A stretch of 64,000 nt of DNA, from IMG/VR virus record IMGVR_UViG_3300043620_000042; one strand, given 5' to 3'. This document shows, in pieces, positions 6,638 to 38,607 of this stretch; the stretch's first letter is position 1, and each line of letters opens with the position of its first letter. The translations under genes were made by a program, and so were the position numbers. The notes below the pieces were generated by a model, which was given only the letters and a program-made list of their open reading frames with translations, did not search any database and was not told the DNA's origin. Origin of the DNA: a virus.

Positions 6638-9600
6638 ATGCAAAGAAAACCACCTGTTTGGTGGCCGGGGATGTTTTGTCTCTGGTCAAAGGCCCTCACA
6701 CTGATTTTTCTCTTCGTTGCCTCAGTGCCGCTCGCTTCACGAGGCGAAGGAACCGTCACTGTCTGCACCGAGTCCAATTTGAACGATGCCTTGGAAGGGG
6801 GCGGTCTTGTCACTATTGCGTGCGATGGAACGATTACGATCACGAGCACGAAAGATACTGTTAACTACGGCGATACGATAATCGATGCGAGCGGTCACAA
6901 TGTCACGATTAGCGGTGGAAGCAACGTTCGGCTGTTCAACGTCTACGATGGGACGAGTCTCACGCTTGTGAACCTGACGCTTGCGAACGGATTAGGTGAC
7001 AATGGTGGCGCCGTTGTAAATAACGGCACACTGAACATGAATTACTGCACCGTTATCAAGAATAAGGCAGTAGGTAGCAATGGCGGCAATGGCGCCAACG
7101 GCAGCGACAGTAGTTCGGGTGACGGAGGTAACGGACAGGTTGGCACAGAGGGTGCAAGTGCTTATGGTGGAGGCATCTACAATCTTGGAACTGCCGGATT
7201 CAATGTTTGTTACTTTGTGAGCAACACGGTAACAGGGGGCACAGGTGGCAACGGGGGCAACGGCGGGAATACGACCGCTAGCTTCGCCCACGGCGGAAAC
7301 GGAGGAATTGGAAAACCTGGAGGAGATGCGCTGGGCGGAGCTATTTTCAGCACCAACGCCGTCTTTATTACCAATTGTTACTTTTACTCTAACACAGTTA
7401 CCGGAGGAAATGGTGGAAGCGGCGGCAGCGGCGGCACTGGGCCCACTGCTGGATTGGCCGCGGACGGAGGAGCTGGCGGCCAAGGCTCAGGAGCGGGTCT
7501 TTACGCAGGCAGTAATTCAGTAGTGATTGCCTCGACCTTTTACGAGAACAGCGGCAAAGGCGGCGATGGTAAGGCGGGTGGAACCGATGGGACCGGCGAA
7601 GGAAATAATGGAAAGCTTGGCGGGGCCAGTGTCGGGATCGGCATTTACAATGTTGGCACGAACGTCACGCTTAACTCTACATTCTATCTCAACTCTGCCA
7701 AAGGCGGCAACGGCGGCAACGGTGGAACTGCCACACGCAATCTAGGAACCGGTGGCGATGGCGGAACTGGCGGTAAAGCTCAGGGTAGCGGCTTATATAA
7801 CGACGGAAAGAGTTCGGTCACCAACTGCACTCTTTCAGTGGGCAGTGTAATTGGTGGAGTAGGGGGGGCGGCTGGAACCGGACCTTTCAACGGAGCGAAC
7901 GGCGGCCGAGGAAATACGAATGGCGCGAACATGTTCAATACTGCGGGATCACCATTCATCCTGGAAAACTCGATTATTGGGGCTAAGAGTGCCGGCGCCA
8001 ATGCCGCTTCGGGGCCAGTAACGGACGCTGGCCACAATATCTGTTTCGACACCTACACCGCGCTTTCAAATCCGACCAGTAGAGACAATACAGATCCAAA
8101 GATTGCCGCTTTGGCCAATAACGGCGGATACACGCCAACTTGTGCTCTCCTATCCGGTAGTCCTGCAATTGATTATGGCGATCCGATTGGAACGCCGCGC
8201 AAAGATCAGCGCGGCCTGTATCGGACATACTACCCTGATGTTGGTGCATACGAAACCAACGCTGATACGGTGGGCTATCTCTTCGTCAACATACAGGCCA
8301 CTGACGCTTATGCGGGCGAAAAGGGGACCAATACTGGAACTTTCCAGATTACCCGAGTTGGCAATCCCAACCTGTCAATCAAAGTTGGATTGGATATCAC
8401 GGGCACTGCCAGTAATGGCGTGGACTATGCGACCCTGCCGACGAATGTGCTGATGGCTGCAGGTGTAATGCAGACCAACCTGACTGTCACACCACTGGGT
8501 AACGCTGGCTTGGAACTCGCTGAATCAGTGGTGGTCGGCCTCAAATCCGGAACGAATTACTTGCCGGGCTTGTACACCAACGCAGTGGTAACGATTGGGG
8601 TGGATTCCAATTACGTGAGAACGGCCTACCCAACGGGAGAACGTTATGTGCGCGGCGCGGGTACGAACATGTCCAACTACACGATCATCGTTCCGCTGGA
8701 TGGGCTGAAAGGGACACCGCATACCGCCTTGGATACAAATTCGCCTCCAATTTTCTATCAATACAATGGAGCGAATGGCGGAACACAGTCCACAACCAAC
8801 AACCGCATTCCCTGCAACACGACAGTTGCCTCATTTGGAAGCGGATGGGGGACAACTTGGTACATTGGCCAGTCCTACTCGTTAGGCGTCCAGATTGCGA
8901 ACGTTGCCCAGACGCCGATTTACATAGCCGTCTTCTCAAAAGCGTTCGGAACGAATATGGGCACGATCGCTGTGAATCTGCCCAATGGTTCCGATTGGGT
9001 CGATTTCGCGACGAATGGATTTTCCCGCACAACGACTGCTTACGGGCTGACGACGACGATCCGGGTCGCGCCGGACAGTCTTTGGGGTGGAAGTGGCGGT
9101 TATGCAATTACTCACGTCGCAAGCGCAGACGCAATCAATTATAGCTATCTGGTTCTTGCCGAGGGATTTTTCAACGGGCAGGCGGCATGGCTTGATTCTA
9201 CGAACGGTGCTACGTTCGCTAGTCTTTACGACTTCGCATTTGACGCGCGGCCGGTGTGGCGCTCGACCTTTCTCGACCAGCCGCACTTTCAGGGACAGCC
9301 ATTGCCACCGGATCTCTTCAACAAAACGCCACAGGAGTTGCTGAATTACGGAGCCGCCGTGACGAACGCCGTGTCGCTGACGCCATCAACCTGCACGAAC
9401 ATAGACCAAAGTCCGGAACTCAGGCGGCATCCAATCCTTGACCAGTTTGTGTCTGACCTGAACAAGGATCCAGTTGCGCTGGCTAACTACGTCCAGAATG
9501 AAATTGAGTTGAGCGATCCGATTGGGTTCCGCGACGATGCGCAGCTCCAAAATGAGTCGGTTAATCTGGGTGGCGTGAATCGCAGCGCGCTGGCCGTTTA

Positions 9601-12600
9601 TCAGGAAGGCCGTGGCTCGTCGATGGAACAGTGCGCTTTACTAGTCTATCTCATGCGGCAGGCGGGTTATCCGGCTTGTTATGTGTTCCCTCCTGACGGT
9701 GGCCTCAAAATGCTGGACACGCGCTTAAGTGCGCTTTTGCGGTTGAGGGTAAATGGCAGCCAGGATGAAAACGGTTATCGCTATACGACCAACAGCTTGA
9801 TTCCGGTCAACTATCCGTGGGTGGCTACCTACGTGAGCAACCAATGGGTCCATCTATTCCCGTGGCTTAAGGACACTCAAGTCACGGAAGGGCTAAACCT
9901 GCGCGATTATCTGCCGGACCAATACAAGGAATTGCAGGTTTGGGTGCGGGACTATGTCTTTGCGAAAACGAATATCATGGCATCCGCCACCCTTGATGAC
10001 GATACTCCGTATGCCATCTTCCCGTCGTTCCTGAGCAGTGTTCTGGCGACAAATGCTCCCGGCATTTCGCTCGATGACATCGGGATGAAATATGTAAACC
10101 GCCGGCACCTTTATACCACCTGGAATGACTTTCCTCGGCCGACACTGGTCACAAATACAAGCACAGCCATTGAAAGCCTAGGGTCAACCAGCGTCACAAA
10201 CGTTTCGTTTCGTCTCACCAATGTGTTCGATACTGTGTACGTTGAACTGTTCAGCCTCTACAATCCGACGAAGCTCGTTCATACGTCCGAAATGCGCATG
10301 TGCGATCTCCATAATCGCAAATTTTACCTGAGCCACACCAATCTTGGAGGGGGGGTATGCCAGGCAATTCTCACACTGGCTCCTTACAGCGTGAACTCGA
10401 CCGGCGCCGGTTCGTTTGCCACAAGTGATACTGCGCTTACCAACAAACAAGTCGTGACGTTGAATCTGGACGGAGACGACGATCAGTTGCGTGTGCGCAT
10501 CCGCTATCGCCGCCAGAAGGCTCTGACATGGCAAACTGCTGTGGACGCGCCGGCTGGATTTCTCGGCGTGAACAGCGAACGCGAGGTTCTTCAGGAGCGC
10601 AAGCTGCGCAAAGGTGACGTTGCAGCCATTTGCTTGAATACGGGTCGAGTCACGCCGGCGATGGTGCGGGTCCACGCTCAGGATATCTGGAACATGGAAC
10701 AGCAGTTGAGCACCAACGCGGCCGCGGCAAGCACCGTCTCGCCTGATGTGTATCAGGGCAGTCTCGTTTACCTGCTGGGTATGAGCTACTACGAGCGGGT
10801 TGCCCGGTTTGATGACCTCAATCGCCGTCTAAACAAAATTCAAGATCTGTCAAAATGCGCGATGGGATTGGCGAAACTGAGTCCGTACCGAAATCCAGAT
10901 GGCTCACTTCCGGATGGTGCCATCGATCCTGTTTGGCCCAATGTTGACATGTTCTTCCTCGAGGAAACATATGTAAACAACGATACGTCACGTCCAGACT
11001 CGGGTTGGGATTTGGAGCTTGCCCGCCGCAATTATGCAAACCTCGCGGTGGCGAACAATTCAGCCCAGGAGCATGCGGTGCTCAACCAATTCTTTGGCCA
11101 GAGCAATTCGGTTTCGACCGTGAAAGTGCTGCAGATCGCCCAAACCAAGGTGCCGAGTGGCAGCTCCAATATCGTCGAGTTGAATTACTTCAATTACGCC
11201 AGCCAGGGGGCCGTGGCCTACAATGGTGTTGCTCTTAAGAATTACGATCCCGACATATGGGCGCAGGTGACCAATTACTTCGCTGATCCAATCCATGGTC
11301 CCTTCACAGTCGCATGGCTTCCGCCCGGAGCGCAGAGCACGCCGAGCGGTTCCTATTCAGGCATGGCAGCGTTGGTGCTCGGGGTCGACGAACAGGTTGC
11401 CGTTATTGGCAATGGCCAATATGGCGGGTTTGCTGATGCCCTTTCGCCTAACACGGTTTCGCGAGGCAGTCTGACGAAGTGGGACCTGTTACAAAGGGCC
11501 GATGGCGGTCTTCAATTCAATAGCGACATTCAAACGCCCGGAGCGAACGCAGCCGCCCCCGAAGTCACGGCCTCATTTCAGTTCACGACGACCACTGGTG
11601 GATTGAATAGTGGGGCTCTGGCAGCAAACCCCTACCAGAATCTCATGGCGACAATTGAAGGCTACTTGCTTAACGGCAGTGGCGGGACCTACGCAAACAT
11701 TCTGCCGACTGGCGAGGACATTGGCCTTACTCAACGGCCCGACGCCCGCGACGGTAATGGCTTACTCCAGTCGGTCTATGATCCCGTCAATGCACTTACC
11801 GGCGAATATTACATCGACGAAGTAGACCTGTCATTGCCCGGTCCGATGCCGCTGCAAGTGCGGCGCAATTACGGCAGCCAGAACCTCGGGAACAGCCAGC
11901 TCGGCTATGGCTGGAAACTCAATTACATGTCTTACCTTACACTTGGTGCGAGTAACGTGGTGTATGAAGCTGAACCTGACGGCTCTGTCTTTGCCTTCGC
12001 GTCGCTGACGACTAATACGTGGGCACCAAATCTGGCTCTCAACCCCACGCTCAACAATGACAGTGTCAATGGAATTGGCTCGGTTGCAAATCATTTGAAT
12101 GCCAAGCTCGCTAAACTCGCGGTTGGAGCGACGAACCTTTGGTATCTGACGAATGGCGACGGCTCACTCCGGGTCTTTCAAGAGATGAGCTTCCCGCTTA
12201 CCAACTCGGCCAGTTACGACCGGCTTCGACCGTATCTCACGTATTGGTACGACAATCAGAGCAACTTTTACCGTTTTGAGTATGGCACTAATGCAACTCA
12301 GGCAGATTACGGACAGGTAAGGAGGATTTCGAGCAGCAGCGGCAATGTCGTGCGATTCCAATACGACGTTTATTCCCGAATTGTGGACGCCTACAGCATT
12401 GACGGACGGCACCTCCAATACGACTACGATGATCATGGCGATCTCGTAACAGTTACATTGCCAGACTTTTCAGAAATTAATTTCAAGTATCAACATCTCT
12501 CTTGGATAACCAACGGTGTCACCAACGTGTATTCGACTCACCTGGTGGTCCGTGAAGAAAAGCCTGACGGCCGCACATTGCAGAACGACTATGACGAGCA

Positions 12601-15600
12601 GCGCCGGGTGACCAATCAATGGTCAACAGTTGGCCCGGATCTTCGGCTAGTTCGCAATGCCACATTCCTTTACACGAATAATTTCAGCCTGACCAATCTG
12701 ACCGGAACTCTATTAGGCACGACTACCATTCTTGATTACACCAACAACCCGACGACCTACTATTACACGAATGGTATTATCCGCCGTGTGCGGGATCCAT
12801 TGGGCGGTGAACTGGTCCAGACCTGGTACGAAGAGAACGAGACGAATGCTCCGGCGTATCCGCGCAGTCTCAAAACCGTGACCGATAAGCGCGGGCTGAT
12901 CACAACGCTGAAATACGATTCGCTAGGGAACGTCACGAACACAACCGTTCAGGGCGACTTGAAAGGCGACGGGGATACGAGCGCGACAGCGGTCGCGACG
13001 GCAATCTTCAACGGGAATAATTTGCCCACTCAGCGTGTGGACATGAGCGGCGCAACGAACCTTTACTATTACACAAATACCTGGCTCCTAGCCCGGCTCG
13101 AAACGTGGCCCTCAAATGCGACGTCATCCCAGGCAATGACCAATTTCTACACGTACACGAGCGTGAGCAATTCGTCGGATGGGACAGTATCGTACGGTCT
13201 GCGATCGCAAGAGGTTCGGGCAGCTAATTCGCCAGACGCTGCTACGAATCAGTTGGTTTATAGTTCTCGGGGCTTCCCAACCCAAATAGTTCGATTCACT
13301 GGCGGCAGTGATCCCACGGTCACGGTCACGAATCTCTTTAATACGCGGGGTGAATTGGTCCAGAGAACCGACGCTGCTGGCCGCAGCATCCGCTTCGGCT
13401 TCGATCCTCGCGGCAACATCCAAAGCCGAGAGGTCTTTGATACGGGCCAATCAGTCCCCATGTCCTGGGACTACTTCTATTACAACGAAAACGGTGAACT
13501 GACTTGGAGCGATGGCCCGCGGTACAATCCCGAGGATTACGTCTGGCGGGATTATGATGGGGCTGGCCGCAAAACTCAGGAGATCCATTGGCGCTCCGAA
13601 GCCAAACCAGACGGCAGCGGAGTGGAGGCGCCTGCAGACGATAGCCTCTACACGACCACTTTTAGTCAATGGGACGCCTTCGGCAATCTTGTTAAGAGCG
13701 TGGACCCGAACGGTAATTACAGCCTCAAATACTACGATGCGATTGGCCAGCTGAAGCGAGAAGAGGCTTATGACATCCACGGAACTCTGCTCGCTACGAA
13801 CGGTTTCGGTTACAATTTGGCTGGGGACGTTACGAACGCGTTCAATCCGTTGGGCGGCAGCATGCAGAAACTTTTCAATGCCCGGGGTCAGCCCAAGTTC
13901 CAGCGTAATTTCGATGGGTCGACCAACGGTTGGCGTTATTACGCTGATGGACGCGTGCGGCGCGAAATTCAGCGCAATGGCGCGTATCGGGAAACGACTT
14001 ATGACGATGCCAATCGGAAGACCACGAAGACCTTCTATTCGGCAGCCGGATCGCCCTTGGCAACAAATTCAACCGTTTTAGATCGGCGCGGTAATATTGT
14101 TCAACGAAGGGACGAGGGGTCCAATCTCTTTACCAATTTGTTTGATGCCTTGGATCGGTTGAAAGTCGCGGCGGGCCCACCGGTGGTGACGGTTAGCCAG
14201 GACCCCATTACAGAGAACTACATAACAAGTGTTGTGCAGCAGGTAACGACTTGCCTGTATACGAACAGCAGCAGGCTGATGACTGTTTCAAACGCAGTTG
14301 GAGAAAAAACCGTTACCATGTTTGACCCGCTGGACCGGCCGACCAGTCTTCAGATTTTTCCGTCCGCCGGCGGCACGCCCGTTAGGATAATGACCACGGC
14401 TTACTCGGCGGATCACCAAAGCGTGACCGTGACCAACGGCTCGGGTGCAAGCGCAATCGTCTCCACGTCCTACTCTGATAGTGACGGCCGGTCGCTGCTG
14501 GTGGTCAGCTATCCATTCGCTAACTCGCGGGAGTATACGCTCCACCAATATGATTTGGCGGGCAACCTTACGTTTGAAGAGCGCAGTTCGGTCACCAACA
14601 ACAGCCAAGCCAATTGGAGCGGCGTTCTGTACGGTTACGACGGACTAAATCGACTGGTGGTTAAATCCGATCGCGATGGAGCCCTGACCTCCTTCGATTA
14701 CGATGCTGCCGGCAATCTTACCAATCAAGTATTGCCGGGGGGTAATCTGAAATTCCAAGCGATTTTCAACAACGCGAGCCAGAAGTTACAAGATTGGTGT
14801 CTCGGCGTCGGAAATGTTGGCACGCGAACCAACAGTTACACCTATTACAGCGCCGGCAGTCCATTTGCGGGTCTTTTGCACACCAGCACAGAGGGGCGAG
14901 GTATCATGTCCACTTTGGATTACGACGATTATCTTCGCGTTGCAACCAACACGCATCCTTACGGCGGCGTTTATCTACCGCAAATCACAACGTGGAAATA
15001 TGATGTGCGAGGTTATCTCACGAATCTTCTCGAACACTACAACGAGTTCTATTTCACCGAAGTGCGGCGCAAGTATGATGCGTACGGCAATATTATTGAT
15101 GACCGAACCTGGCTGAACGGCGTCGGTGAAGCATCTGAGGCGGCTCAGAGTTGGGATTCGGCAGGGCGTAGGGCGTCGCTCGAAGTATCTGGTTTCGGAT
15201 ATGGCTACACGTGGAGGGCGGACGGTCTCCTTGCATCCGTATCGACTGCGGCTGGCAGCTCAAGCTATGGTTACGATTCTGCTGGAATCCTGACAAACCG
15301 AATTGCAGGCGGGAAAGTTACGACCATCACGGCACGGGATGGTGCGGGCAGGTCGCTCTCCCTTTTTACCACGGTTAATTTGCAGCCAACCCTCACCGAG
15401 ACGCTAACTCGCACTGGCGACGGTTTGTTGAGCAGCGATACGGTAGGACGCGCTGGCGACTTCACGAATTCACAGGCGTATGGGTATGCCGAATTAACTC
15501 GCCGGTTAACCAACGAGGTACTCAATCTCAATGCGACGAAGCGCTGGACGAATTCGTTCGTTTACGATGGAGGCAATAGTGCTGGCCTTGGCCTTCTCAC

Positions 15601-17431
15601 GAAAGTCGGACCTCTTGGCCAGTGGTCTGGTGGAGCAGATGCGCTGTCGCGAATCGGTGCCGAAACCAACACCGTCTCAACCCGTCGCGCTTATGGCCGC
15701 GTAAACGGATCCGCAACGATTTCGGCATCTTTAGATGCCGCGCTGACCCCCGTAGAAATTCTGCAGACCACCGACCACGACTGGAGTTACCAGTGGCGAA
15801 CCACAATGGAACTAACCCCAGGCGCTCACCGTTTGTCAGTGTCTGCCACTCATCCCGGTGGAATGTTTGTGACGAATCAGAGTGTATGGTTCACCAACAA
15901 TATGGGGAATCAGTCTGTCTCGGATTCTTACGATGCGGTGGGAAATCTGACCAAGAGAGTTTGGAAGAGCGTCGGCGGGGCGACCAATCACGTTCAGACG
16001 CTGGATTGGGATTTCAAAGGTCGCTTGAACCACGTCCAGGATATTGATGAGCAGGGAAATGCAGTTGATTGGAACGCCGTATATGATGGTTTTGACAGGA
16101 GGATTTACTCCTACTGGCAATCGTTCGGCACGAATACCAGCGGCGGGTCCACGATTGTTCAATACTACGACCCTCAAGTTGAATTTCTGGAACTGGGTGT
16201 CATTAATAACGGGCTGGCAACGTGGAGGGTTTATGGCCCTGATATGAGTGGCTGCTATGGAGGGATGCAAGGAATTGGCGGGCTGGATGCAATCGTTGAA
16301 GAACCGAATATATTCGAGCCGGTTTTGGGCGATGCTCGTGGCAACCTGCAAGGCTACTATTCGCCGATCCAAGTCAAACCAGTTTGGAACTCGTCGCGAC
16401 CGACAGGTTATGGAGGTGTTCCTGGCTACCGGCCCGTTTCGTTGGACGAAGGAGTTAATTTGGTTCAGGCGTCTGCTTGGCAAGGTTCTTGGAGCGATCT
16501 GACGGGGTTCTACTGGCGCGGCAAGCGGTATTACGATCCTGTTGCTGGGCGCTGGGTATCGGCTGACTCGGTTTGGAATGGACGCGACCCGAACTACTTC
16601 ACGTTCTGCGGCAGTGATCCGATCAACAGCTTCGATCCGGATGGGCGATTTGGAAAAGAGTGGGTGGCGGTCGCAAATACGCTCCGCGACAGCGAAGACA
16701 TCAGCGATCGATTTTCGGCAATGCCCGCCGGGTTCGTGGGTGCGATCGCCATGGGAGTCGGCTCCACTCCGTCAGTCTATGATCAGGCTGCACAGCGAAT
16801 GGCTGAGGCGCGTGCTGAAATTAACACCTACTCGGGGAGAGATGCATTTCTAGCTCGCACACTAATGCTCTCCGGTGATTTTGCTTTCGGCACGACCAAA
16901 TTGGTGAACGACCCGTTCAATACTTTGTTGGACACACCTCAAGGCTTCGTCAATTTCGGTGCGAAAATTGGAGGTGATGTTTACAACGTTGGGGCAAATC
17001 CGTCGGTAAATACATTTTTTAATATTGTTGAAGACACCTTGGCCGTCGCTGGAATGGCTGACGGTGCTGTTGGTCTTAATCGCGCGGCTGATGCCCTGAT
17101 CGGTAATCCAAATCCAAAGGTGTTCTGGTCGGGTGGACGGTCGTTGGCGGGACGGGATGCAGAAGCATACGCAAAAGCTGTGGGCGGACAAACATTGGAA
17201 ATGACAGGAACGGGTATGGTTCTGGATGCGATTACCACAAAGTGGACGTACCCATTACTCCGTCCGCTCTGGGAAAAGGCGTCATTTGACTTCGCTGCTA
17301 GCGCTGAGGGCCCAGTTGATGTGTTCCAGTCCGCCACACGTGGTGTGCGAGTTGATAGTGTGTGGCGTAGGGTAGAATATCCGCAGTTGATGAAGCAGGG
17401 AAACCAAATAAACTATCACTTAGCACCATAG
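6638..17431 (+). CDS. Giant RHS polymorphic toxin (3597 aa) with C-terminal ADP-ribosyl-cyclase/NADase-like (Tox-ARC) domain
   Basis: Signal peptide; Gly/Asn-rich beta-helix-like repeats; choice-of-anchor-Q-like (ALANNGGYTPTCALLSGSPAIDYG); Calx-beta-like; transglutaminase-like (LLVYLMRQAGYPACYV); DUF6531-like (DPVNALTGEY...LGYGW); YD repeats; RHS core (RYYDPVAGRWVSAD...DPDG); toxin FWSG..TLEMT..LWEKAS..FA..SVWRRVE. Confidence 0.9.
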   Translation: MQRKPPVWWPGMFCLWSKALTLIFLFVASVPLASRGEGTVTVCTESNLNDALEGGGLVTIACDGTITITSTKDTVNYGDTIIDASGHNVTISGGSNVRLFNVYDGTSLTLVNLTLANGLGDNGGAVVNNGTLNMNYCTVIKNKAVGSNGGNGANGSDSSSGDGGNGQVGTEGASAYGGGIYNLGTAGFNVCYFVSNTVTGGTGGNGGNGGNTTASFAHGGNGGIGKPGGDALGGAIFSTNAVFITNCYFYSNTVTGGNGGSGGSGGTGPTAGLAADGGAGGQGSGAGLYAGSNSVVIASTFYENSGKGGDGKAGGTDGTGEGNNGKLGGASVGIGIYNVGTNVTLNSTFYLNSAKGGNGGNGGTATRNLGTGGDGGTGGKAQGSGLYNDGKSSVTNCTLSVGSVIGGVGGAAGTGPFNGANGGRGNTNGANMFNTAGSPFILENSIIGAKSAGANAASGPVTDAGHNICFDTYTALSNPTSRDNTDPKIAALANNGGYTPTCALLSGSPAIDYGDPIGTPRKDQRGLYRTYYPDVGAYETNADTVGYLFVNIQATDAYAGEKGTNTGTFQITRVGNPNLSIKVGLDITGTASNGVDYATLPTNVLMAAGVMQTNLTVTPLGNAGLELAESVVVGLKSGTNYLPGLYTNAVVTIGVDSNYVRTAYPTGERYVRGAGTNMSNYTIIVPLDGLKGTPHTALDTNSPPIFYQYNGANGGTQSTTNNRIPCNTTVASFGSGWGTTWYIGQSYSLGVQIANVAQTPIYIAVFSKAFGTNMGTIAVNLPNGSDWVDFATNGFSRTTTAYGLTTTIRVAPDSLWGGSGGYAITHVASADAINYSYLVLAEGFFNGQAAWLDSTNGATFASLYDFAFDARPVWRSTFLDQPHFQGQPLPPDLFNKTPQELLNYGAAVTNAVSLTPSTCTNIDQSPELRRHPILDQFVSDLNKDPVALANYVQNEIELSDPIGFRDDAQLQNESVNLGGVNRSALAVYQEGRGSSMEQCALLVYLMRQAGYPACYVFPPDGGLKMLDTRLSALLRLRVNGSQDENGYRYTTNSLIPVNYPWVATYVSNQWVHLFPWLKDTQVTEGLNLRDYLPDQYKELQVWVRDYVFAKTNIMASATLDDDTPYAIFPSFLSSVLATNAPGISLDDIGMKYVNRRHLYTTWNDFPRPTLVTNTSTAIESLGSTSVTNVSFRLTNVFDTVYVELFSLYNPTKLVHTSEMRMCDLHNRKFYLSHTNLGGGVCQAILTLAPYSVNSTGAGSFATSDTALTNKQVVTLNLDGDDDQLRVRIRYRRQKALTWQTAVDAPAGFLGVNSEREVLQERKLRKGDVAAICLNTGRVTPAMVRVHAQDIWNMEQQLSTNAAAASTVSPDVYQGSLVYLLGMSYYERVARFDDLNRRLNKIQDLSKCAMGLAKLSPYRNPDGSLPDGAIDPVWPNVDMFFLEETYVNNDTSRPDSGWDLELARRNYANLAVANNSAQEHAVLNQFFGQSNSVSTVKVLQIAQTKVPSGSSNIVELNYFNYASQGAVAYNGVALKNYDPDIWAQVTNYFADPIHGPFTVAWLPPGAQSTPSGSYSGMAALVLGVDEQVAVIGNGQYGGFADALSPNTVSRGSLTKWDLLQRADGGLQFNSDIQTPGANAAAPEVTASFQFTTTTGGLNSGALAANPYQNLMATIEGYLLNGSGGTYANILPTGEDIGLTQRPDARDGNGLLQSVYDPVNALTGEYYIDEVDLSLPGPMPLQVRRNYGSQNLGNSQLGYGWKLNYMSYLTLGASNVVYEAEPDGSVFAFASLTTNTWAPNLALNPTLNNDSVNGIGSVANHLNAKLAKLAVGATNLWYLTNGDGSLRVFQEMSFPLTNSASYDRLRPYLTYWYDNQSNFYRFEYGTNATQADYGQVRRISSSSGNVVRFQYDVYSRIVDAYSIDGRHLQYDYDDHGDLVTVTLPDFSEINFKYQHLSWITNGVTNVYSTHLVVREEKPDGRTLQNDYDEQRRVTNQWSTVGPDLRLVRNATFLYTNNFSLTNLTGTLLGTTTILDYTNNPTTYYYTNGIIRRVRDPLGGELVQTWYEENETNAPAYPRSLKTVTDKRGLITTLKYDSLGNVTNTTVQGDLKGDGDTSATAVATAIFNGNNLPTQRVDMSGATNLYYYTNTWLLARLETWPSNATSSQAMTNFYTYTSVSNSSDGTVSYGLRSQEVRAANSPDAATNQLVYSSRGFPTQIVRFTGGSDPTVTVTNLFNTRGELVQRTDAAGRSIRFGFDPRGNIQSREVFDTGQSVPMSWDYFYYNENGELTWSDGPRYNPEDYVWRDYDGAGRKTQEIHWRSEAKPDGSGVEAPADDSLYTTTFSQWDAFGNLVKSVDPNGNYSLKYYDAIGQLKREEAYDIHGTLLATNGFGYNLAGDVTNAFNPLGGSMQKLFNARGQPKFQRNFDGSTNGWRYYADGRVRREIQRNGAYRETTYDDANRKTTKTFYSAAGSPLATNSTVLDRRGNIVQRRDEGSNLFTNLFDALDRLKVAAGPPVVTVSQDPITENYITSVVQQVTTCLYTNSSRLMTVSNAVGEKTVTMFDPLDRPTSLQIFPSAGGTPVRIMTTAYSADHQSVTVTNGSGASAIVSTSYSDSDGRSLLVVSYPFANSREYTLHQYDLAGNLTFEERSSVTNNSQANWSGVLYGYDGLNRLVVKSDRDGALTSFDYDAAGNLTNQVLPGGNLKFQAIFNNASQKLQDWCLGVGNVGTRTNSYTYYSAGSPFAGLLHTSTEGRGIMSTLDYDDYLRVATNTHPYGGVYLPQITTWKYDVRGYLTNLLEHYNEFYFTEVRRKYDAYGNIIDDRTWLNGVGEASEAAQSWDSAGRRASLEVSGFGYGYTWRADGLLASVSTAAGSSSYGYDSAGILTNRIAGGKVTTITARDGAGRSLSLFTTVNLQPTLTETLTRTGDGLLSSDTVGRAGDFTNSQAYGYAELTRRLTNEVLNLNATKRWTNSFVYDGGNSAGLGLLTKVGPLGQWSGGADALSRIGAETNTVSTRRAYGRVNGSATISASLDAALTPVEILQTTDHDWSYQWRTTMELTPGAHRLSVSATHPGGMFVTNQSVWFTNNMGNQSVSDSYDAVGNLTKRVWKSVGGATNHVQTLDWDFKGRLNHVQDIDEQGNAVDWNAVYDGFDRRIYSYWQSFGTNTSGGSTIVQYYDPQVEFLELGVINNGLATWRVYGPDMSGCYGGMQGIGGLDAIVEEPNIFEPVLGDARGNLQGYYSPIQVKPVWNSSRPTGYGGVPGYRPVSLDEGVNLVQASAWQGSWSDLTGFYWRGKRYYDPVAGRWVSADSVWNGRDPNYFTFCGSDPINSFDPDGRFGKEWVAVANTLRDSEDISDRFSAMPAGFVGAIAMGVGSTPSVYDQAAQRMAEARAEINTYSGRDAFLARTLMLSGDFAFGTTKLVNDPFNTLLDTPQGFVNFGAKIGGDVYNVGANPSVNTFFNIVEDTLAVAGMADGAVGLNRAADALIGNPNPKVFWSGGRSLAGRDAEAYAKAVGGQTLEMTGTGMVLDAITTKWTYPLLRPLWEKASFDFAASAEGPVDVFQSATRGVRVDSVWRRVEYPQLMKQGNQINYHLAP

Positions 17432-18655: not shown

Positions 18656-19063
18656 ATGACACGAGCGTTCTTAATGGTCTTATTACTTAGTGCCGGTACG
18701 GCGGGCGCGGCACTTAACATTACAGTCTCTCCGGCGAAGATGATCGGCCAAAAAGCCGATGTGCAACTTGGGCTTCAGAACAACTTGAACGAGAACGTGC
18801 GATCGGCTCGGGCAGTCGTGTTCTTGCTCGATGATCAAGGAAAGGTCGTTGCTCAAGGGAGTAGATGGATCATCGGCGGGTTTGTGTCCAGCCCGGGCTT
18901 GGCCGCAGGCGCGACCAATACGTTCCACTTTGTCGTAGATGCCGCCAAACCGTTCACCGGCGCAAATGTCACCGCCAAGGTGACGGTCAATCGCGTTGTT
19001 CTTGAAGGCGGTCGGCTGGCTGATGTGAACAAGGACGTACAGGTTAAGCCTGCGGCGAAGTGA
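18656..19063 (+). CDS. Small secreted beta-sandwich-like protein
   Basis: Signal peptide MTRAFLMVLLLSAGTAGA; alternating beta pattern. Confidence 0.55.
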   Translation: MTRAFLMVLLLSAGTAGAALNITVSPAKMIGQKADVQLGLQNNLNENVRSARAVVFLLDDQGKVVAQGSRWIIGGFVSSPGLAAGATNTFHFVVDAAKPFTGANVTAKVTVNRVVLEGGRLADVNKDVQVKPAAK

Positions 19064-19083
19064 CGAGGGCGAAAGGCAGGAGT

Positions 19084-19103
19084 CCAGAGGATAAATCCTC
19101 TGG
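19084..19103. terminator. Stem-loop between convergent operons
   Basis: CCAGAGGA-TAAA-TCCTCTGG perfect 8-bp stem; no clear U-tract. Confidence 0.35.
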
Positions 19104-19258
19104 TGCGGGTCCGGGCCGGCATGAGGCCCGGCGCTGTTAAAAAACTACGCGCGCGAAGCGCGAAAAAATTTTCGGCCAAGGGAGCAATCACCGGCAGGCA
19201 GATTGTTGTGCCGCACTTCAGACTTTCGTCCGGGTGATTGTCCCCTGGCGGAAGCGGG

Positions 19259-19513
19259 TTAGAAAAGGGTGCGGGTTTCGGTTTCCCTGATCGTGTAGCG
19301 CAAGGTGTAGGTTCGGGAGGTGCCGGACCGTCCAGGGCGATCCTTGCGGATTACGGCTTTGAGCAAGCGCGGGCCGTGTTGGTGTTTGAGTTGGGTTAGT
19401 TCGCATTCCGCGCTGTCACGGTCGGGAATGCAAATTTGCGAGATAGAGCGTTCAAGTGTAACGGTGTGAGTGAGGCGCAAGAGGAATTGTGTCGGGTGGT
19501 TGTGCATGTTCAA
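19259..19513 (-). CDS. Small hypothetical protein
   Basis: 84 aa; overlaps the stop of the upstream PRTase-like gene (ATGA coupling). Confidence 0.5.
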   Translation of the reverse strand: MNMHNHPTQFLLRLTHTVTLERSISQICIPDRDSAECELTQLKHQHGPRLLKAVIRKDRPGRSGTSRTYTLRYTIRETETRTLF

Positions 19514-20031
19514 AAAAGGGTTGCTTGGATTTGGACGCGACGCGGGGCCGCATCGGCGAAGACAAGGCCAGCGCCGAAACCGAGCGCAAGGCGAGCGGCT
19601 TCAAGGGTGTTTCCGCTGGTCGTTACGTTGTCCACAAAATAGGTTTGGCGTAGGGTCAAAACTTTTCGCGTGCGGGCGAAGTGGTGTTGCTCTGGCCGAA
19701 TTGAGCCAAGCGCGTGCTTGTGTCGGTCGCATTGGGATTGAACGGGTTGCGTGCGGTAAATCGCCTTTGCGAGTTGGGCACCCGTCACGTATCGCGCTAT
19801 GTGGTGAGCGAGTCGGGCGTTTGCGTCGGTGTTGCCGCTGCTGTCGGGTATCGGTACAAGCCAGCATGGGCTGGTGATGAGTGCGGCCATTTCTCGGGCT
19901 GCGGTGTCGAAGTCCACTAATGTACTAGCGATGCTTTTTATCGCGTAGGCGAGTCGGCGGGTTTCGGTCTGCTCTATGGTGAGCGGGCCGTTGCGCGGCG
20001 TTGGATATTTGCGGGCGGCGAGAATTTGCAT
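19510..20031 (-). CDS. Type I phosphoribosyltransferase-like (ComF-like) protein
   Basis: LVPIPDSSG and PRPP-binding-like loop YFVDNVTTSGNTLEAA; start set at ATG 20031. Confidence 0.7.
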   Translation of the reverse strand: MQILAARKYPTPRNGPLTIEQTETRRLAYAIKSIASTLVDFDTAAREMAALITSPCWLVPIPDSSGNTDANARLAHHIARYVTGAQLAKAIYRTQPVQSQCDRHKHALGSIRPEQHHFARTRKVLTLRQTYFVDNVTTSGNTLEAARLALGFGAGLVFADAAPRRVQIQATLF

Positions 20032-20075
20032 GTTGTGATTGCCCGGGCCAGAGAGCTGGACCGGGCTGTTTGGTT

Positions 20076-20495
20076 TCAATCCTCGTCGGGCATCATGACG
20101 GTGATTGCGGGTTGCGGGTCGTCGACATCGAGCGGGCCGCAAGTGGCAATCAGTTTGATGAGGCGGGCGCGGCGGTTGTCGTTGCGGACGTAGAGCGCAA
20201 CGGGCAGTCGTGTTTGACCGGGCTGCGCTTTGGTGCGAGCCGCACTGGCCTTTATCGCAAAGCGAGTCATCCAGACGATGTCCCAAAGCCGGCCGGCTTC
20301 GTCCTGGCCGGTGATGCCGGCCGGAACCGTTACGTATTTGTCATAGACTGCGCGGGTAAGAAAAACGGGGTAAGTGATTCCGGCTTCCCGCGCTACTTTC
20401 GAGACTTCGATTTGAAACCCGTCGGCGATGGCTTGGGAGCGGGTGTAAGAGTAGATAACTGGCCCGAATTGTTCGTTGGTGTTTTGGTTTTCCAT
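20076..20495 (-). CDS. DUF6573-like protein
   Basis: IYSYTRSQAIADG...GQDEAGRLWDIVWM...CGPLDVDDPQPAITVMMPDED pattern typical of this mobile-element family. Confidence 0.65.
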   Translation of the reverse strand: MENQNTNEQFGPVIYSYTRSQAIADGFQIEVSKVAREAGITYPVFLTRAVYDKYVTVPAGITGQDEAGRLWDIVWMTRFAIKASAARTKAQPGQTRLPVALYVRNDNRRARLIKLIATCGPLDVDDPQPAITVMMPDED

Positions 20496-20506
20496 GGCGT
20501 CTCCTT

Positions 20507-21022
20507 TCAGGAATAGAAGTATCCAAGCTCGCGCAAGGAAGTGTGTTTAGGGTTTCCGATGATGACGTGATCGAGGACTTCAATTTTTAGAAGCTGACCT
20601 GCGCGAATGAGGTCGCGGGTTACTTTGATATCGGCTTCGCTCGGCGTGGGTTCTCCGCTCGGGTGGTTGTGCATCAAAACAACTGCCGCAGCACAAGTGA
20701 TGACAGCCAAACGAAATACGCTGATCGGGTGAACTAAAATTGTATCCTGCGTTCCGAATGAAACGATCTGGTGCGCTTTGACTCTGCGGCGGGTGTTAAG
20801 GAGTAGAACCGTAAAGCATTCGCATTCCGGGTTGAAATATGGGTTTTGCGGGACGTGCAAGCGCCAGTATTCGGCGGCTTTGTCGGGTGTGTCGCAGAGT
20901 TGCAAGGTCTCCGGCGTCGGGCATTCGCGGAGCGGTACGACTTTGTACTCGTACGGCTGCGAGCTGAATTTGAACGGTTTCACAAGCTGCTCAAATCCGG
21001 GAAGGGTTTCTGTGGTGTTCAT
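20507..21022 (-). CDS. radC: RadC-family JAB domain protein
   Basis: ECFTVLLLNTR, HNHPSGEPTPSEAD, LLKIEVLDHVII. Start set at ATG 21022. Confidence 0.9.
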   Translation of the reverse strand: MNTTETLPGFEQLVKPFKFSSQPYEYKVVPLRECPTPETLQLCDTPDKAAEYWRLHVPQNPYFNPECECFTVLLLNTRRRVKAHQIVSFGTQDTILVHPISVFRLAVITCAAAVVLMHNHPSGEPTPSEADIKVTRDLIRAGQLLKIEVLDHVIIGNPKHTSLRELGYFYS

Positions 21023-21086
21023 TTTCTGGAAAGTGAAGCGGGGCACAGCTTCGAGGCATCGAAGCCGCCAGCCGTGCCCCATGGTT

Positions 21087-21602
21087 TCATGCGGCGGCCT
21101 GTTCAAGATTCTGTTGCGCTTGTTTCTTGAGGAGTTCTGCGTGTGCGTTAGGAAACCAAGCTTCGTATTTCTCGCGGGGTTCCTGCGTTCCGCGTGGAAG
21201 TGTTTCTCCGCAGGGGTGCTGCCAACACTTCCGGGTGTTGTTCCAATGGAAACCAAGCTGCGAAAGCTCAGCGCGTACGCGTTCAAGCGGTGGTTCGGGA
21301 AAGGTAATCCAAATCCATTTGCCAACTACTTCGGCGAGTTTGAATTGCTCGGGCATCCAGCGTTCGAGTTTTTCGAGGACTTTCTCGACTGAGAGTTTCC
21401 GGTTGAAATCGCGCTCTGCAAAATTCACATAAGGCTTTACCGGAGCGTTTACGGTTCCGGTTTCCTGCGGTGCCGTTTCGGTTTCCGATGCCGTCTCCGT
21501 CTCGGAAGTCTTTGCCGTTTCTGTCTCTGACAACTGCTCGGTTCGGTTCTTGAGCTGTGATCCGGTCTTTCTGTTTGTTTTGTTCTGTTTGCTGGTTTTC
21601 AT
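21087..21602 (-). CDS. Hypothetical phage/plasmid-type protein
   Basis: SETET-repeat N-terminus; EVVGKWIWITF...LSQLGFHWNNTRKCWQHPCG core; ATG sits at the base of a long hairpin. Confidence 0.65.
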   Translation of the reverse strand: MKTSKQNKTNRKTGSQLKNRTEQLSETETAKTSETETASETETAPQETGTVNAPVKPYVNFAERDFNRKLSVEKVLEKLERWMPEQFKLAEVVGKWIWITFPEPPLERVRAELSQLGFHWNNTRKCWQHPCGETLPRGTQEPREKYEAWFPNAHAELLKKQAQQNLEQAAA

Positions 21603-21787
21603 GGTCTTTTTTTTTGATCTCTGCTGCTCGGTTTCGGACTCTCGCCCTTCACCTCCTGAAGCCCGCGCATCAGGGCGGCCCGTGGGAGTAGTCTTCAGAG
21701 GGCACCACGCTCCCGGCCCCCTGATGAAAGCGCGGGCGGGTGAGGGCGAGAGTTTGAAAACTCCGGTGCAGCAGAAGCAAAAAGACC
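21603..21787. other. ~185-nt imperfect stem-loop (ssi/Frpo-like or structured RNA)
   Basis: Nested pairings: GGTCTTTT/AAAAGACC, TCTGCTGC/GCAGCAGA, ACTCTCGCCC/GGGCGAGAGT, TCACC/GGTGA, GCCCGCGC/GCGCGGGC, ATCAGGG/CCCTGAT, CGTGG/CCACG. Confidence 0.75.
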
Positions 21788-21934
21788 TGAAAACGGGGCA
21801 ACAGTGGGGGCAAACAGAACGGGTCAGGCGGAGGAACGGAGCCGAGGCGGGGAGTTTATCTCGAACGAAGTGAGCTGATCGAAGTCTGGCAGCCTGGCTG
21901 GCGATGTCGCATACTCTGGTCCGGGTCTGTTGGA

Positions 21935-22882
21935 ATGAAGTTAAGCGCTGTAATCGACAAATCGCTGTTGCAGGCAATCTGCTCAGAGGGTGAGCCGCAA
22001 CGCGTCGAGTTGTGGCGAGAACTATTGAGTCGTTATCAGATTGTTATACCGTTTGTTCTCGTCGAGGAGGTATGGACTAATCTGGCCTGCCCTCGGTTGA
22101 AGAAGTTGAGTGTGATCCAGGAAATGGTGCGGGCCTTGGCCGCCATGACGTCGTGCTGGATCGAGGAGGAAATGGAAATCGTGTTCGGCGAACTCGTGCA
22201 GAACAAGCGGAGGAAGAGGCTGCCAGCAGCTCCCAAGGCCATCGTCAAAAGGGTGCTTGCTTTGACAGCGAATGAACCCGGGCTTTTGGAGTGGCTGGAT
22301 CAGGCCGAGAAGACTAGGAAGCAGGCTATCGCCGATCGCGTGAAGAGTCAGAGGGATATCTTGGGAGAGGGGAAATTTGTCGTAATTAAAAACGAGGGAG
22401 AATTGTTCGAGCGTTATGTGCGCGAACAGTTCTTAGAAATCGTGGCGTCACCTTCACGGAAGATCGTACTCATGGAAAAAGTGTTCGGACGTACGTTTCG
22501 GCAACGCCATTCGAATTTCAAGCGCCGGATAGAGAAGGCTTTTACTTCTTACAGTAGAGCTACTTTCAAGCATTACCCCATTACTTTGAGCTATTTGATG
22601 GCTGAGATGTTCTACTTTTACGCACCGCTTTGTCGTATTCAACCCAAGTCTGGTCTGACACCTCGAAAGATCATTGGCAGCAAGCGAGCTGAGCAGATCA
22701 ACAATATCCAGGATCAGAAATACGTGGCTGGCGCTTTAATTTGCGACCGGCTGTTGACGTGTGATGAGGGGATGCGGAATCTGCTGCAGATATTTCGGGC
22801 AGCGCGACTCTGGAAGGGCGAAGTAGTTTACATCAATCCAAATGTTGCACTGGGGAACCAAATTCCTCAGCTGCTAAGGTGA
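21935..22882 (+). CDS. Hypothetical protein, possibly PIN-like nuclease
   Basis: N-terminal AVIDKS, VLVEE, and C-terminal NIQDQKY...DRLLTCD give an acidic arrangement like PIN domains. Confidence 0.45.
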   Translation: MKLSAVIDKSLLQAICSEGEPQRVELWRELLSRYQIVIPFVLVEEVWTNLACPRLKKLSVIQEMVRALAAMTSCWIEEEMEIVFGELVQNKRRKRLPAAPKAIVKRVLALTANEPGLLEWLDQAEKTRKQAIADRVKSQRDILGEGKFVVIKNEGELFERYVREQFLEIVASPSRKIVLMEKVFGRTFRQRHSNFKRRIEKAFTSYSRATFKHYPITLSYLMAEMFYFYAPLCRIQPKSGLTPRKIIGSKRAEQINNIQDQKYVAGALICDRLLTCDEGMRNLLQIFRAARLWKGEVVYINPNVALGNQIPQLLR

Positions 22883-22932
22883 GCCTGTCGGGATAAGTAC
22901 GGAGGAGATTGTGAATAACTTGTTGGGTTGGG

Positions 22933-22949
22933 GTGTCAAAAAATGGCAC
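22933..22949. promoter_or_regulatory. Third copy of the 17-bp palindrome (GTGTCA-AAAAA-TGGCAC)
   Basis: Same geometry as 4409 and 4467; 28 bp upstream of ATG 22978, first gene of the phage-like + strand run. Confidence 0.55.
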
Positions 22950-22977
22950 CCCGGGTTTTGTAGAGTGGAGGGCAAAT

Positions 22978-23247
22978 ATGAAAGCTACATTAATGACAAA
23001 ACAAGTTATTGAACCAACAACCGACAACATTCAGGCCGTGCAACACTGGTTTGCGAGCCTTCCACCAGAGCAACAACAGTTCGCGTTTGAACTCTGGAAG
23101 ATGATCCATCGAGCGGATAACAATCATGTGATTGAGGTCAAAAAGATTGGTGAGCGTTTGCGGGCGACACTGATTTATCTTTTGCGTCCTTGTTCGCACA
23201 AGTCGCCGAGCGGATTTGTTCCGCGTGGCAAGTGCAAGTGGAACTGA
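22978..23247 (+). CDS. Small hypothetical protein
   Basis: ATG 22978 preceded by GGAGGG; heads the + strand operon. Confidence 0.45.
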   Translation: MKATLMTKQVIEPTTDNIQAVQHWFASLPPEQQQFAFELWKMIHRADNNHVIEVKKIGERLRATLIYLLRPCSHKSPSGFVPRGKCKWN

Positions 23248-34136: not shown

Positions 34137-34802
34137 ATGAGCCTTGACCGAACAAGACTGCAGAAGGTCCGCGACTTGGCCACCGGTGGCCTTCAGGCCC
34201 AGTGCCCTGCTTGTGCTGAGGTCGGACAGGATCGCACTGGTGAACATCTGAGAATTTCCCCTGAGGGGAAATTCGGCTGTTGCGTCTTCCCTGGCGACCG
34301 CAAACACCGCAGCCGGATTTTTGCGTTGGCTGGTGAACATGGAACCAAGGCCATCAAGGTCAGGGTGGCATCGGCAAAATCTGCTGCCGCTTTGCAGTTG
34401 GACCTGTTGGGACGCTTGGGACGGGTGTTCAACAGTCTAACTGAATGTCAGAACAGTGAAGCTGTTAATCTTGGGACGCTTGGGACGGGCACTTACTCTT
34501 TACGTATAGAAGAAAATGAGATCTGTATACATAAGGTAATAGATAATCGAACAAGCGTCCCAAACGTCCCAACTATTGAACCCTGGCAGCAGTCGGAAAC
34601 AGGCGTCCCAAGCGTCCCAGTCCTACCCAGACCGGGCAGTGTTCGACTGCCGTATCTGACGCCGTCCGGTGATCTGGTGATCCCGTTTGACTCGCCTGAA
34701 CGGTACCACTGGTGGAAACCGCCACACGAAAAACGGCTGAGGGTGAAGGAAATCCTCGCTGAACTCCGGGAAAGAAAGGAAAATGATGTCTCACCTTTTT
34801 GA
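34137..34802 (+). CDS. Zn-binding-like protein containing the putative origin
   Basis: QCPACAE...HLRI...FGCCV; iterons lie inside the coding sequence. Confidence 0.6.
   Translation: MSLDRTRLQKVRDLATGGLQAQCPACAEVGQDRTGEHLRISPEGKFGCCVFPGDRKHRSRIFALAGEHGTKAIKVRVASAKSAAALQLDLLGRLGRVFNSLTECQNSEAVNLGTLGTGTYSLRIEENEICIHKVIDNRTSVPNVPTIEPWQQSETGVPSVPVLPRPGSVRLPYLTPSGDLVIPFDSPERYHWWKPPHEKRLRVKEILAELRERKENDVSPF
34407..34619. repeat. Putative replication origin: 8 TGGGACG-type iterons around an AT-rich core
   Basis: TTGGGACGCTTGGGACG at 34407 and 34471; inverted CGTCCCAAACGTCCCAA at 34556 and CGTCCCAAGCGTCCCA at 34604; AT-rich spacer ~34490-34550. Confidence 0.7.
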
Positions 34803-38274: not shown

Positions 38275-38568
38275 CTAGAACAGCCAGCGCAGCGCCAACC
38301 CGACGAGCCACGGACCGAAGAGCAGCGCCCCAACGCCGAGAGCGACACGCACCGACCGCACGAGAGCCAAGCGCCGACACGAACGCACCGGACGCCACTC
38401 CTGCACCGAACCGCACGCCCGCCAGTCACGCACCGACTGACGCGCCCGACCCGCGACGCGCCACCAAACCCACCACGACGCCTGCCGCCACCACGCACCG
38501 ACCCACCAACCCCAATACAACGAACAGTAATACCCAACCTGCCACTTTATTTTTTTAATTCTTTTCAT
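38275..38568 (-). CDS. Possible Trp/Arg-rich small membrane protein
   Basis: MKRIKKIKWQVGYYCSLYWGWWVGAWW...; may only reflect GT skew. Confidence 0.3.
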   Translation of the reverse strand: MKRIKKIKWQVGYYCSLYWGWWVGAWWRQASWWVWWRVAGRARQSVRDWRACGSVQEWRPVRSCRRLALVRSVRVALGVGALLFGPWLVGLALRWLF

Positions 38569-38607
38569 CACCTGTCTCTGAAAAGAATTAAAAAAATAAG
38601 TGGCAGG
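38538..38607. repeat. AT-rich near-perfect 29-bp inverted repeat
   Basis: CCTGCCACTTTATTTTTTTAATTCTTTTCA - 11-nt loop - TGAAAAGAATTAAAAAAATAAGTGGCAGG, one bulged T. Confidence 0.85.

Follow-up and report, generated by a model that had tools for sequence, protein, structure and literature searches.

A long imperfect hairpin in the window (the whole 64,000-nt stretch of DNA that was analysed) belongs to a well-defined family of new sequence, is selected to fold on the template strand of the operon that it heads, and together with ATGAAAAC forms a cassette that precedes different first genes at a constant spacing. We put at about even the chance that the hairpin is a portable promoter of the Frpo/ssi kind, one that needs single-stranded or extruded DNA.

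The hairpin, its relatives and the strand that folds

The initial annotation had marked a hairpin at 21603-21787 with an ATG at the base of its stem. The long imperfect hairpin is real, its folds as RNA and as DNA beating all 200 shuffles, and that interval covers its core, but the stem extends beyond it by about 8 nt at either end, and the foot pair 21595-21794 closes the minimum free energy (MFE) fold of 21595-21795. As RNA the + strand folds at -120 kcal/mol (z -10.8, MFE against shuffles) and the - strand at -109.6 kcal/mol (z -9.5); with DNA parameters the - strand reaches -63.1 (z -10.4). The structure lies between two divergent genes, one of 171 aa (21087-21602, -) and one of 315 aa (21935-22882, +), and does abut the former as annotated, but the start codon, which reads CAT at 21600-21602 on the + strand with its gene on the minus strand, is inside the stem foot together with the next 7 nt, the T opposite the A of the ATG being bulged. 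The parts of the hairpin, with the evidence for each, are as follows:

21595..21794, + strand (the operon template strand and the strand of the selected fold): whole hairpin cassette (folding, covariation, strand asymmetry, covariance model R1)
21682..21708, + strand: apex GTGGGAGTAGTCTTCAGAGGGCACCAC, nearly invariant (alignments, pattern scan)
21642..21653, + strand: 5'-arm box TCGCCCTTCACC, which pairs with 21739-21749 (near-invariant columns; alignment pairs 83-89 with 222-228)
21739..21749, + strand: 3'-arm box GGTGAGGGCGA, conserved (alignments)
21595..21615, + strand: AT-rich stem foot, template arm (sequence, fold; kept in all type-1 copies)
21779..21794, + strand: foot partner AAAAAGACCTGAAAAC on the 3' arm (sequence, fold, alignment)

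The apex is made up of a short closing stem, GYGG/CCRC, which covaries, a G-rich internal loop and a mini-hairpin TCT-TC-AGA, with covarying pairs at alignment columns 152/179 and 162/170. The template arm of the foot holds the complement of ATGAAAAC, the motif GGTC and a run of nine T that templates an A-rich leader. The annotation had allowed that the element might belong to a known Rfam family; cmscan of 20500-23000 at E values up to 10 found no family and returned chance matches only, the best of them a plant miRNA precursor that scored 23.9 bits where the gathering score is 75. An intrinsic terminator was considered and rejected, as the genes on both sides start away from the hairpin and neither strand has a T-run after it.

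Homologues of the hairpin were reached by way of the adjoining protein, p171, and by way of the structure itself. A scan of species-representative genomes gave 70 p171 loci, almost all in Verrucomicrobiota, often several to a metagenome-assembled genome (MAG) and often at contig ends. Upstream of p171 the hairpin keeps 72-84% nucleotide identity (blastn) where the adjacent protein keeps only 37-64%, and more than 120 homologous copies are found in Verrucomicrobiota MAGs and metagenomes. Covariation across these related loci, which the annotation had named as a check, is strong. In a MAFFT alignment of 35 copies, RNAalifold finds 39 pairs, 22 of them with compensatory changes. The covariance model of the hairpin, R1, matches 52 sites in genome loci, and in the alignment of these 52 copies 31 of the 39 pairs have double changes and 96.7% of cells pair; covariation scores 0.505, compared with 0.177 for shuffles (0/500) and at most 0.114 for controls in which the partner was slid. 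R1 matches the window at 21590-21810 with 201 bits, and the 64,000 nt hold this one copy only. An exact-pattern scan for the apex reached three IMG/VR contigs and at least 120 metagenome stretches, in more than 70 of which R1 verified a full hairpin. By blastn the hairpin is unmatched in 72,556 plasmids, F-type ones included, and in 50,697 phage records. Distant p171 loci to which R1 has no match also have structured upstream regions, which are not alignable to the R1 hairpins.

Selection acts on the fold of one strand only, the operon's template. This strand (+ in the window, antisense to the operon) folds better in 36/36 full-length genome loci and is the more stable one in all 68 of the independent metagenome copies; under DNA energy parameters it is so in 115 of 118 copies. 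The consensus pairs contain, on the template strand, 119 G.T cells versus 6 A.C cells, with the T on the 5' arm in 106 of the 119, and the MFE folds contain 231 G.U pairs on the template strand versus 76 on the sense strand (434 versus 140 in the metagenome set). Strand-biased mutation was rejected as the cause of this asymmetry because well-aligned unpaired columns have no excess of C/T polymorphism (451, versus 567 for A/G). The G.T versus A.C asymmetry is a simple test for the functional strand of a palindrome, and does not separate RNA from DNA.

The cassette, its operon and its place in the element

The hairpin and ATGAAAAC together precede different first genes, and where a downstream ORF was called the distance from apex to ATG is 73-84 nt in 57 of 70 loci. 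The first genes are:

p171: 40 loci
an 83-aa protein: 6 loci
ArdC (ArdcN and MPTase-PolyVal, E about 1e-33 to 1e-39): 3 loci
RadC: 2 loci
DUF6573: 1 locus
other proteins of unknown kind: the remaining loci

Nearly all first proteins at the canonical spacing start with MKT, MNT or MTT because ATGAAAAC belongs to the stem foot. The segment from foot to box measures 40 +/- 4 nt on the template arm, while that of the partner arm varies (38 +/- 10 nt). Alignments of the copies show no conserved sequence upstream of the foot, and therefore any promoter in the cassette sits inside the hairpin.

In eight loci a second, diverged hairpin (type 2) stands 2-5 kb downstream in the same orientation. Its stem takes in about 130 nt at the start of the conserved 83-aa gene (MNTT...), paired there with a non-coding mirror arm, and the structure of about 400 nt folds at -229 kcal/mol on the template strand and -190 kcal/mol on the sense strand. 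Type-2 copies lie at L002:9490-9889 and also in L003, L004, L005, L007, L008, L010, L011 and L101-L103.

The cassette stands directly before full ArdC genes at L104:7302-8361, L125:7123-8274 and L141:462-1620. The first of these loci is an IMG/VR contig, whose neighbouring genes encode a large serine recombinase, an MvaI/BcnI-like nuclease with an N4/N6 methylase, two proteins of the sigma-70 family and one of the AAA_25 family. At another locus (L151:328-1674, -) a DDE_Tnp_1_4 transposase occupies the usual place of the first gene, about 210 nt from the apex, which looks like an IS insertion into the cassette.

In the window the operon and the first gene on the other side of the hairpin comprise:

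21087..21602, - strand: p171, 171 aa, the first gene of the operon (465 homologues; no Pfam family)
20507..21040, - strand: RadC-like JAB domain protein (PF04002, E 1.5e-34)
20076..20495, - strand: DUF6573 protein (PF20213, E 1.9e-20)
19510..19962, - strand: 150-aa protein without a family match (synteny with the operon conserved)
19148..19162, - strand: terminator-like GC hairpin with a T-run at the operon end (sequence)
21935..22882, + strand: 315-aa divergent gene, the first of the main-direction block, no family match (ORF, profile search)

The p171 family is confined to Verrucomicrobiota-type contigs. Its N-terminus is of low complexity and rich in Thr and Glu, and its C-terminal core, WxWxxF...LGFHWNNxRKCWQHPCG, is conserved, the part LGFHWNNxRKCWQHPCG being invariant. 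No Pfam, NCBIfam or PHROG family matches p171 (DUF5710 stays below threshold at E 0.078), its AF2 model (pLDDT 65) has no fold match in the PDB, and tblastn finds it absent from the PLSDB plasmids. The 150-aa protein has a PRPP-binding-like motif, seen by eye only.

To the right of the hairpin follow early genes and then a PD-(D/E)XK nuclease, a PIF1-like helicase, a PrimPol and the large terminase (terL); for a neighbouring gene of 482 aa the protein atlas gave only unnamed phage-like clusters. Judged by its neighbours, the hairpin operon belongs to a terminase/portal element family. Its commonest place is between terL and the portal gene (DUF4055) on the opposite strand, and in the window and six other loci it heads the early block, again on the opposite strand. 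It is antiparallel to terL, portal, PrimPol and p437/p482 in every locus that shows main-direction genes, so wherever those genes are visible it is their coding strand that folds. Were that strand single-stranded, the hairpin operon would therefore be the sole unit for which it could serve as template.

Readings of the hairpin

To our knowledge, ssDNA promoters have been experimentally proven only in enterobacterial IncF and IncI plasmids. Those of F and pESBL fall into several classes, occur in repeated copies and are silent once double-stranded (PMC9849209, PMC11541004, PMC12672017); F carries Frpo1 and Frpo2 as paired copies (PMC9849209), and Frpo and the class 1-3 ssDNA promoters are template-strand hairpin promoters (PMC11541004, PMC12672017). 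With this group (class 1: F Frpo1/Frpo2 and ColIb-P9 ssi1-3; classes 2-3: pESBL and F) the present hairpin shares a long imperfect stem-loop that folds on the template strand, a place directly upstream of co-oriented anti-defence or establishment genes readable from that strand, and several paralogous copies that lie a few kb apart in one orientation. The Frpo/ssi reading of the initial annotation gains from this template-strand fold, from the portability of the cassette before RadC, ArdC, DUF6573 and p171 and from the tandem orientation of the paralogues. It loses from the differences: the hairpin has no sequence similarity to Frpo or homology to Frpo-bearing plasmids and no recognisable -35/-10 hexamers in its stem, and in place of a conjugative leading region its host is a capsid-forming, terminase-packaged element with a portal, in Verrucomicrobiota, with no relaxase or T4SS found in the window genes scanned. 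The start codon also lies in the stem foot, and in type 2 so does coding sequence, which is undescribed for Frpo.

On either strand of 18900-23000 there is no -35/-10 pair of the sigma-70 type, a consensus that may not be the host's, and no sigma-54, ECF or Bacteroidetes-type box is conserved at a fixed spacing in the arms and apex, inspected by eye; for a Verrucomicrobia promoter consensus the literature searched offered nothing usable. On the side that would be non-template, T is scarce in both lower arms. Packaging by terminase and portal implies delivery of dsDNA and therefore counts against the promoter reading. About a quarter of the apex variants carry C(TTCG)G or C(TACG)G, tetraloops of UNCG type on the template strand, and as such loops are expected to be extra-stable in RNA rather than in DNA they would count against a DNA fold.

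If the hairpin is a promoter, we infer the following course, in which the promoter role, the polymerase used and the timing of the single-stranded state are all conditional. The + strand, when single-stranded or extruded from supercoiled DNA, would fold into a stem-loop of about 200 nt whose stem would serve as a duplex entry site for RNA polymerase; the enzyme would then transcribe out across the AT-rich foot, and the mRNA would begin with a short, A-rich leader free of structure or, possibly, would lack a leader. The products would be the anti-restriction-type genes p171, RadC and DUF6573, with ArdC in relatives. Only operon genes use the + strand as template, and they would be the sole ones expressed in that state of the DNA, which would most likely arise when it has just entered a new cell or while it is replicated by strand displacement.

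Phage N4 illustrates how such a device could work in a dsDNA element. The early promoters of its virion RNA polymerase are template-strand hairpins extruded from supercoiled dsDNA and stabilised by SSB in a capsid-delivered genome, and only the template-strand hairpin has to persist (PMC4496689). N4 stems are 5-7 bp with a 3-nt loop, in hairpins centred at -11, and are served by a dedicated virion RNA polymerase of 3500 aa, whereas the stem here is about 90 bp, the N4 size is approached only by the 3-bp mini-hairpin of the apex, and no large RNA polymerase gene was found among the ORFs scanned. We hold only tentatively that tailless capsid-forming elements of Verrucomicrobiota switch on genes of the ArdC, RadC and DUF6573 type by a template-strand hairpin, such promoters then not being confined to conjugation. 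Were this so, either the particles would deliver or expose ssDNA, or the hairpin would be extruded as in N4 but for a host-type polymerase, or expression would be tied to replication, coupled to its strand-displacing form. A promoter of this kind would add a sequence-unrelated family, from another phylum and fused to classical anti-restriction genes, in elements that make phage heads; it would make hairpin-headed early-gene cassettes a general solution among mobile elements and would raise the question of when a capsid-borne element becomes single-stranded.

Whether such elements act as RNA or as ssDNA has been asked before: Weinberg et al. (2010) described radC and STAXI motifs adjoining radC, antirestriction, ssb and integrase genes of mobile elements, raised this ambiguity and, for STAXI, took stable tetraloops as an argument for RNA (PMC2864571). 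These motifs (RF01754, RF01728) resemble the present family in being structured elements near radC and antirestriction genes with the same ambiguity, and differ in being small pseudoknots or multi-stem motifs of Proteobacteria, where we see a single hairpin of 200 nt without a cmscan match. A functional + strand RNA, antisense to the operon, seems to us rather unlikely. It could be part of a late transcript reading through from terL across the antisense operon and the hairpin into the portal gene; the hairpin would then mark a site for processing, stabilise the transcript or, by sequestering itself, block antisense interference. Alternatively, it could be an antisense RNA transcribed on its own. 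The G.U bias and the UNCG-type tetraloops do fall on the + strand, the operon commonly lies between terL and portal on the opposite strand, and of 22 gaps only 9 have a convincing terminator for transcription in the terL direction, the other 13 having a weak one or none. Some arrangements, however, have no convergent unit nearby, the genes being co-oriented over 6 kb or more in the window, L002-L006 and L015, and the hairpins of L025 and L125 lying behind RHS genes; an antisense promoter of its own would need a place within three different coding sequences; there is no U-run after the hairpin; and an RNA of this strand gives no reason for the fixed spacing and the inclusion of the start codon across varied first genes. 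A cis-regulatory RNA in the mRNA leader, the alternative offered by the initial annotation, is disfavoured by the template-strand asymmetry, since such a structure predicts the opposite bias, and we regard it as improbable. In the mRNA G.U pairs would be nearly absent (6 cells) and C.A mismatches common (119 cells), the sense strand is the weaker one in 68/68 and 115/118 copies, and no promoter is conserved upstream of the hairpin. The sense strand is nonetheless very stable too (-109.6 kcal/mol, z -9.5), and with the AUG and first codons in the stem, and in type 2 about 130 nt of coding sequence paired, such a leader would hide the start codon and silence translation unless RNase III cleaved it or an internal start were used; it could at least silence read-through transcripts.

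Strand-specific hairpins also occur as origins: both ssoA, found on rolling-circle plasmids, and the minus-strand origin of Ff are ssDNA hairpins 100-200 nt long that are specific in strand and orientation, have a conserved loop and are recognised by the host RNA polymerase. No rolling-circle Rep was seen in the genes scanned here, and such origins serve to prime DNA synthesis and are not known to be fused to gene starts. A site of this sort with no promoter role, whether for priming (sso/ssi-like, possibly through the element's PrimPol), as an origin or as a folded recombination substrate, would account for the strand-specific fold and the invariant apex, which recall ssoA and its conserved loop, and would suit an element that encodes PrimPol, a PIF1-like helicase and a PD-(D/E)XK nuclease; according to a passage of PMC12672017 that cites Masai and Arai (1997), Frpo primes DNA synthesis as well. 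We give this reading a low probability: priming or origin function needs no fixed junction to different start codons, the hairpin here is joined to gene starts, and two or more copies per element, each before a gene, are not expected. A selfish repeat of the MITE or REP kind, which the annotation had also allowed for, or a functionless chance palindrome is scarcely credible. The number of sites, about 4 to 10 distinct ones per MAG, would suit a repeat, but all of them stand before genes in the same context, all copies are in a single element family, oriented towards and abutting a gene, and the hairpin is better conserved (72-84%) than the adjacent protein (37-64%); with its strong compensatory covariation and invariant apex, covariation and context effectively refute this explanation.

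Conjugation-type genes and other features of the element

Among leading-region products, ArdC is the classical anti-restriction protein that binds ssDNA. In the predicted products the gene content of the operon matches that of conjugative leading regions: RadC and DUF6573 are present, ArdC is found in relatives, and homologues of DUF6573 occur on 215 plasmids, of which 129 are typed as conjugative, with DUF6573 on a MOBP plasmid standing in a string of small genes that adjoins the start of the tra region. The description of the operon as leading-region-like holds in this respect but not for its placement next to an oriT and relaxase, the operon sitting inside a terminase/portal element. As the annotation had stated, no relaxase is visible in the window genes scanned, nor is a T4SS. 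In five hairpin-bearing genomes the HMMs for Relaxase (PF03432) and VirB4 (PF03135) gave 0/5; TrwC or MobA is present in two of the five, not at R1-type hairpins, and the relaxase families searched are absent from the other three. Of T4SS components, neither a VirB4-type ATPase nor a coupling protein turned up convincingly in these five genomes, T4CP giving one borderline match.

In one hairpin-bearing Verrucomicrobia MAG (G007), genes of the p171, DUF6573, PRT-like and RadC kinds lie 5-11 kb from a TrwC relaxase. Within this relaxase-linked island (L227:11800-19400 and L228:15-1952; contig C3, 715.8-726 kb) three hairpin repeats of about 140 nt head gene units (L227 at about 13.97, 17.33 and 19.15 kb); the template strand is again the more stable, and R1 does not match them.

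RHS/YD-repeat toxin genes lie beside cassettes at L025:488-5503, L125:1127-5677 and 6638-17431 of the window, and in two loci they are directly upstream of the cassette and co-oriented with it, which suggests that cassettes and RHS cargo travel in one element family. At 34396-34619 of the window, within a 241-aa gene, inverted arrays of an iteron-like word, TTGGGACGC(TT), stand directly upstream of the small gene that precedes terL and could be a pac site or an origin. In the cargo block, at 38538-38607, a perfect AT-rich palindrome with 21-nt arms and an 11-nt spacer is flanked by a minus-strand ORF and a plus-strand ORF and is probably a bidirectional terminator.
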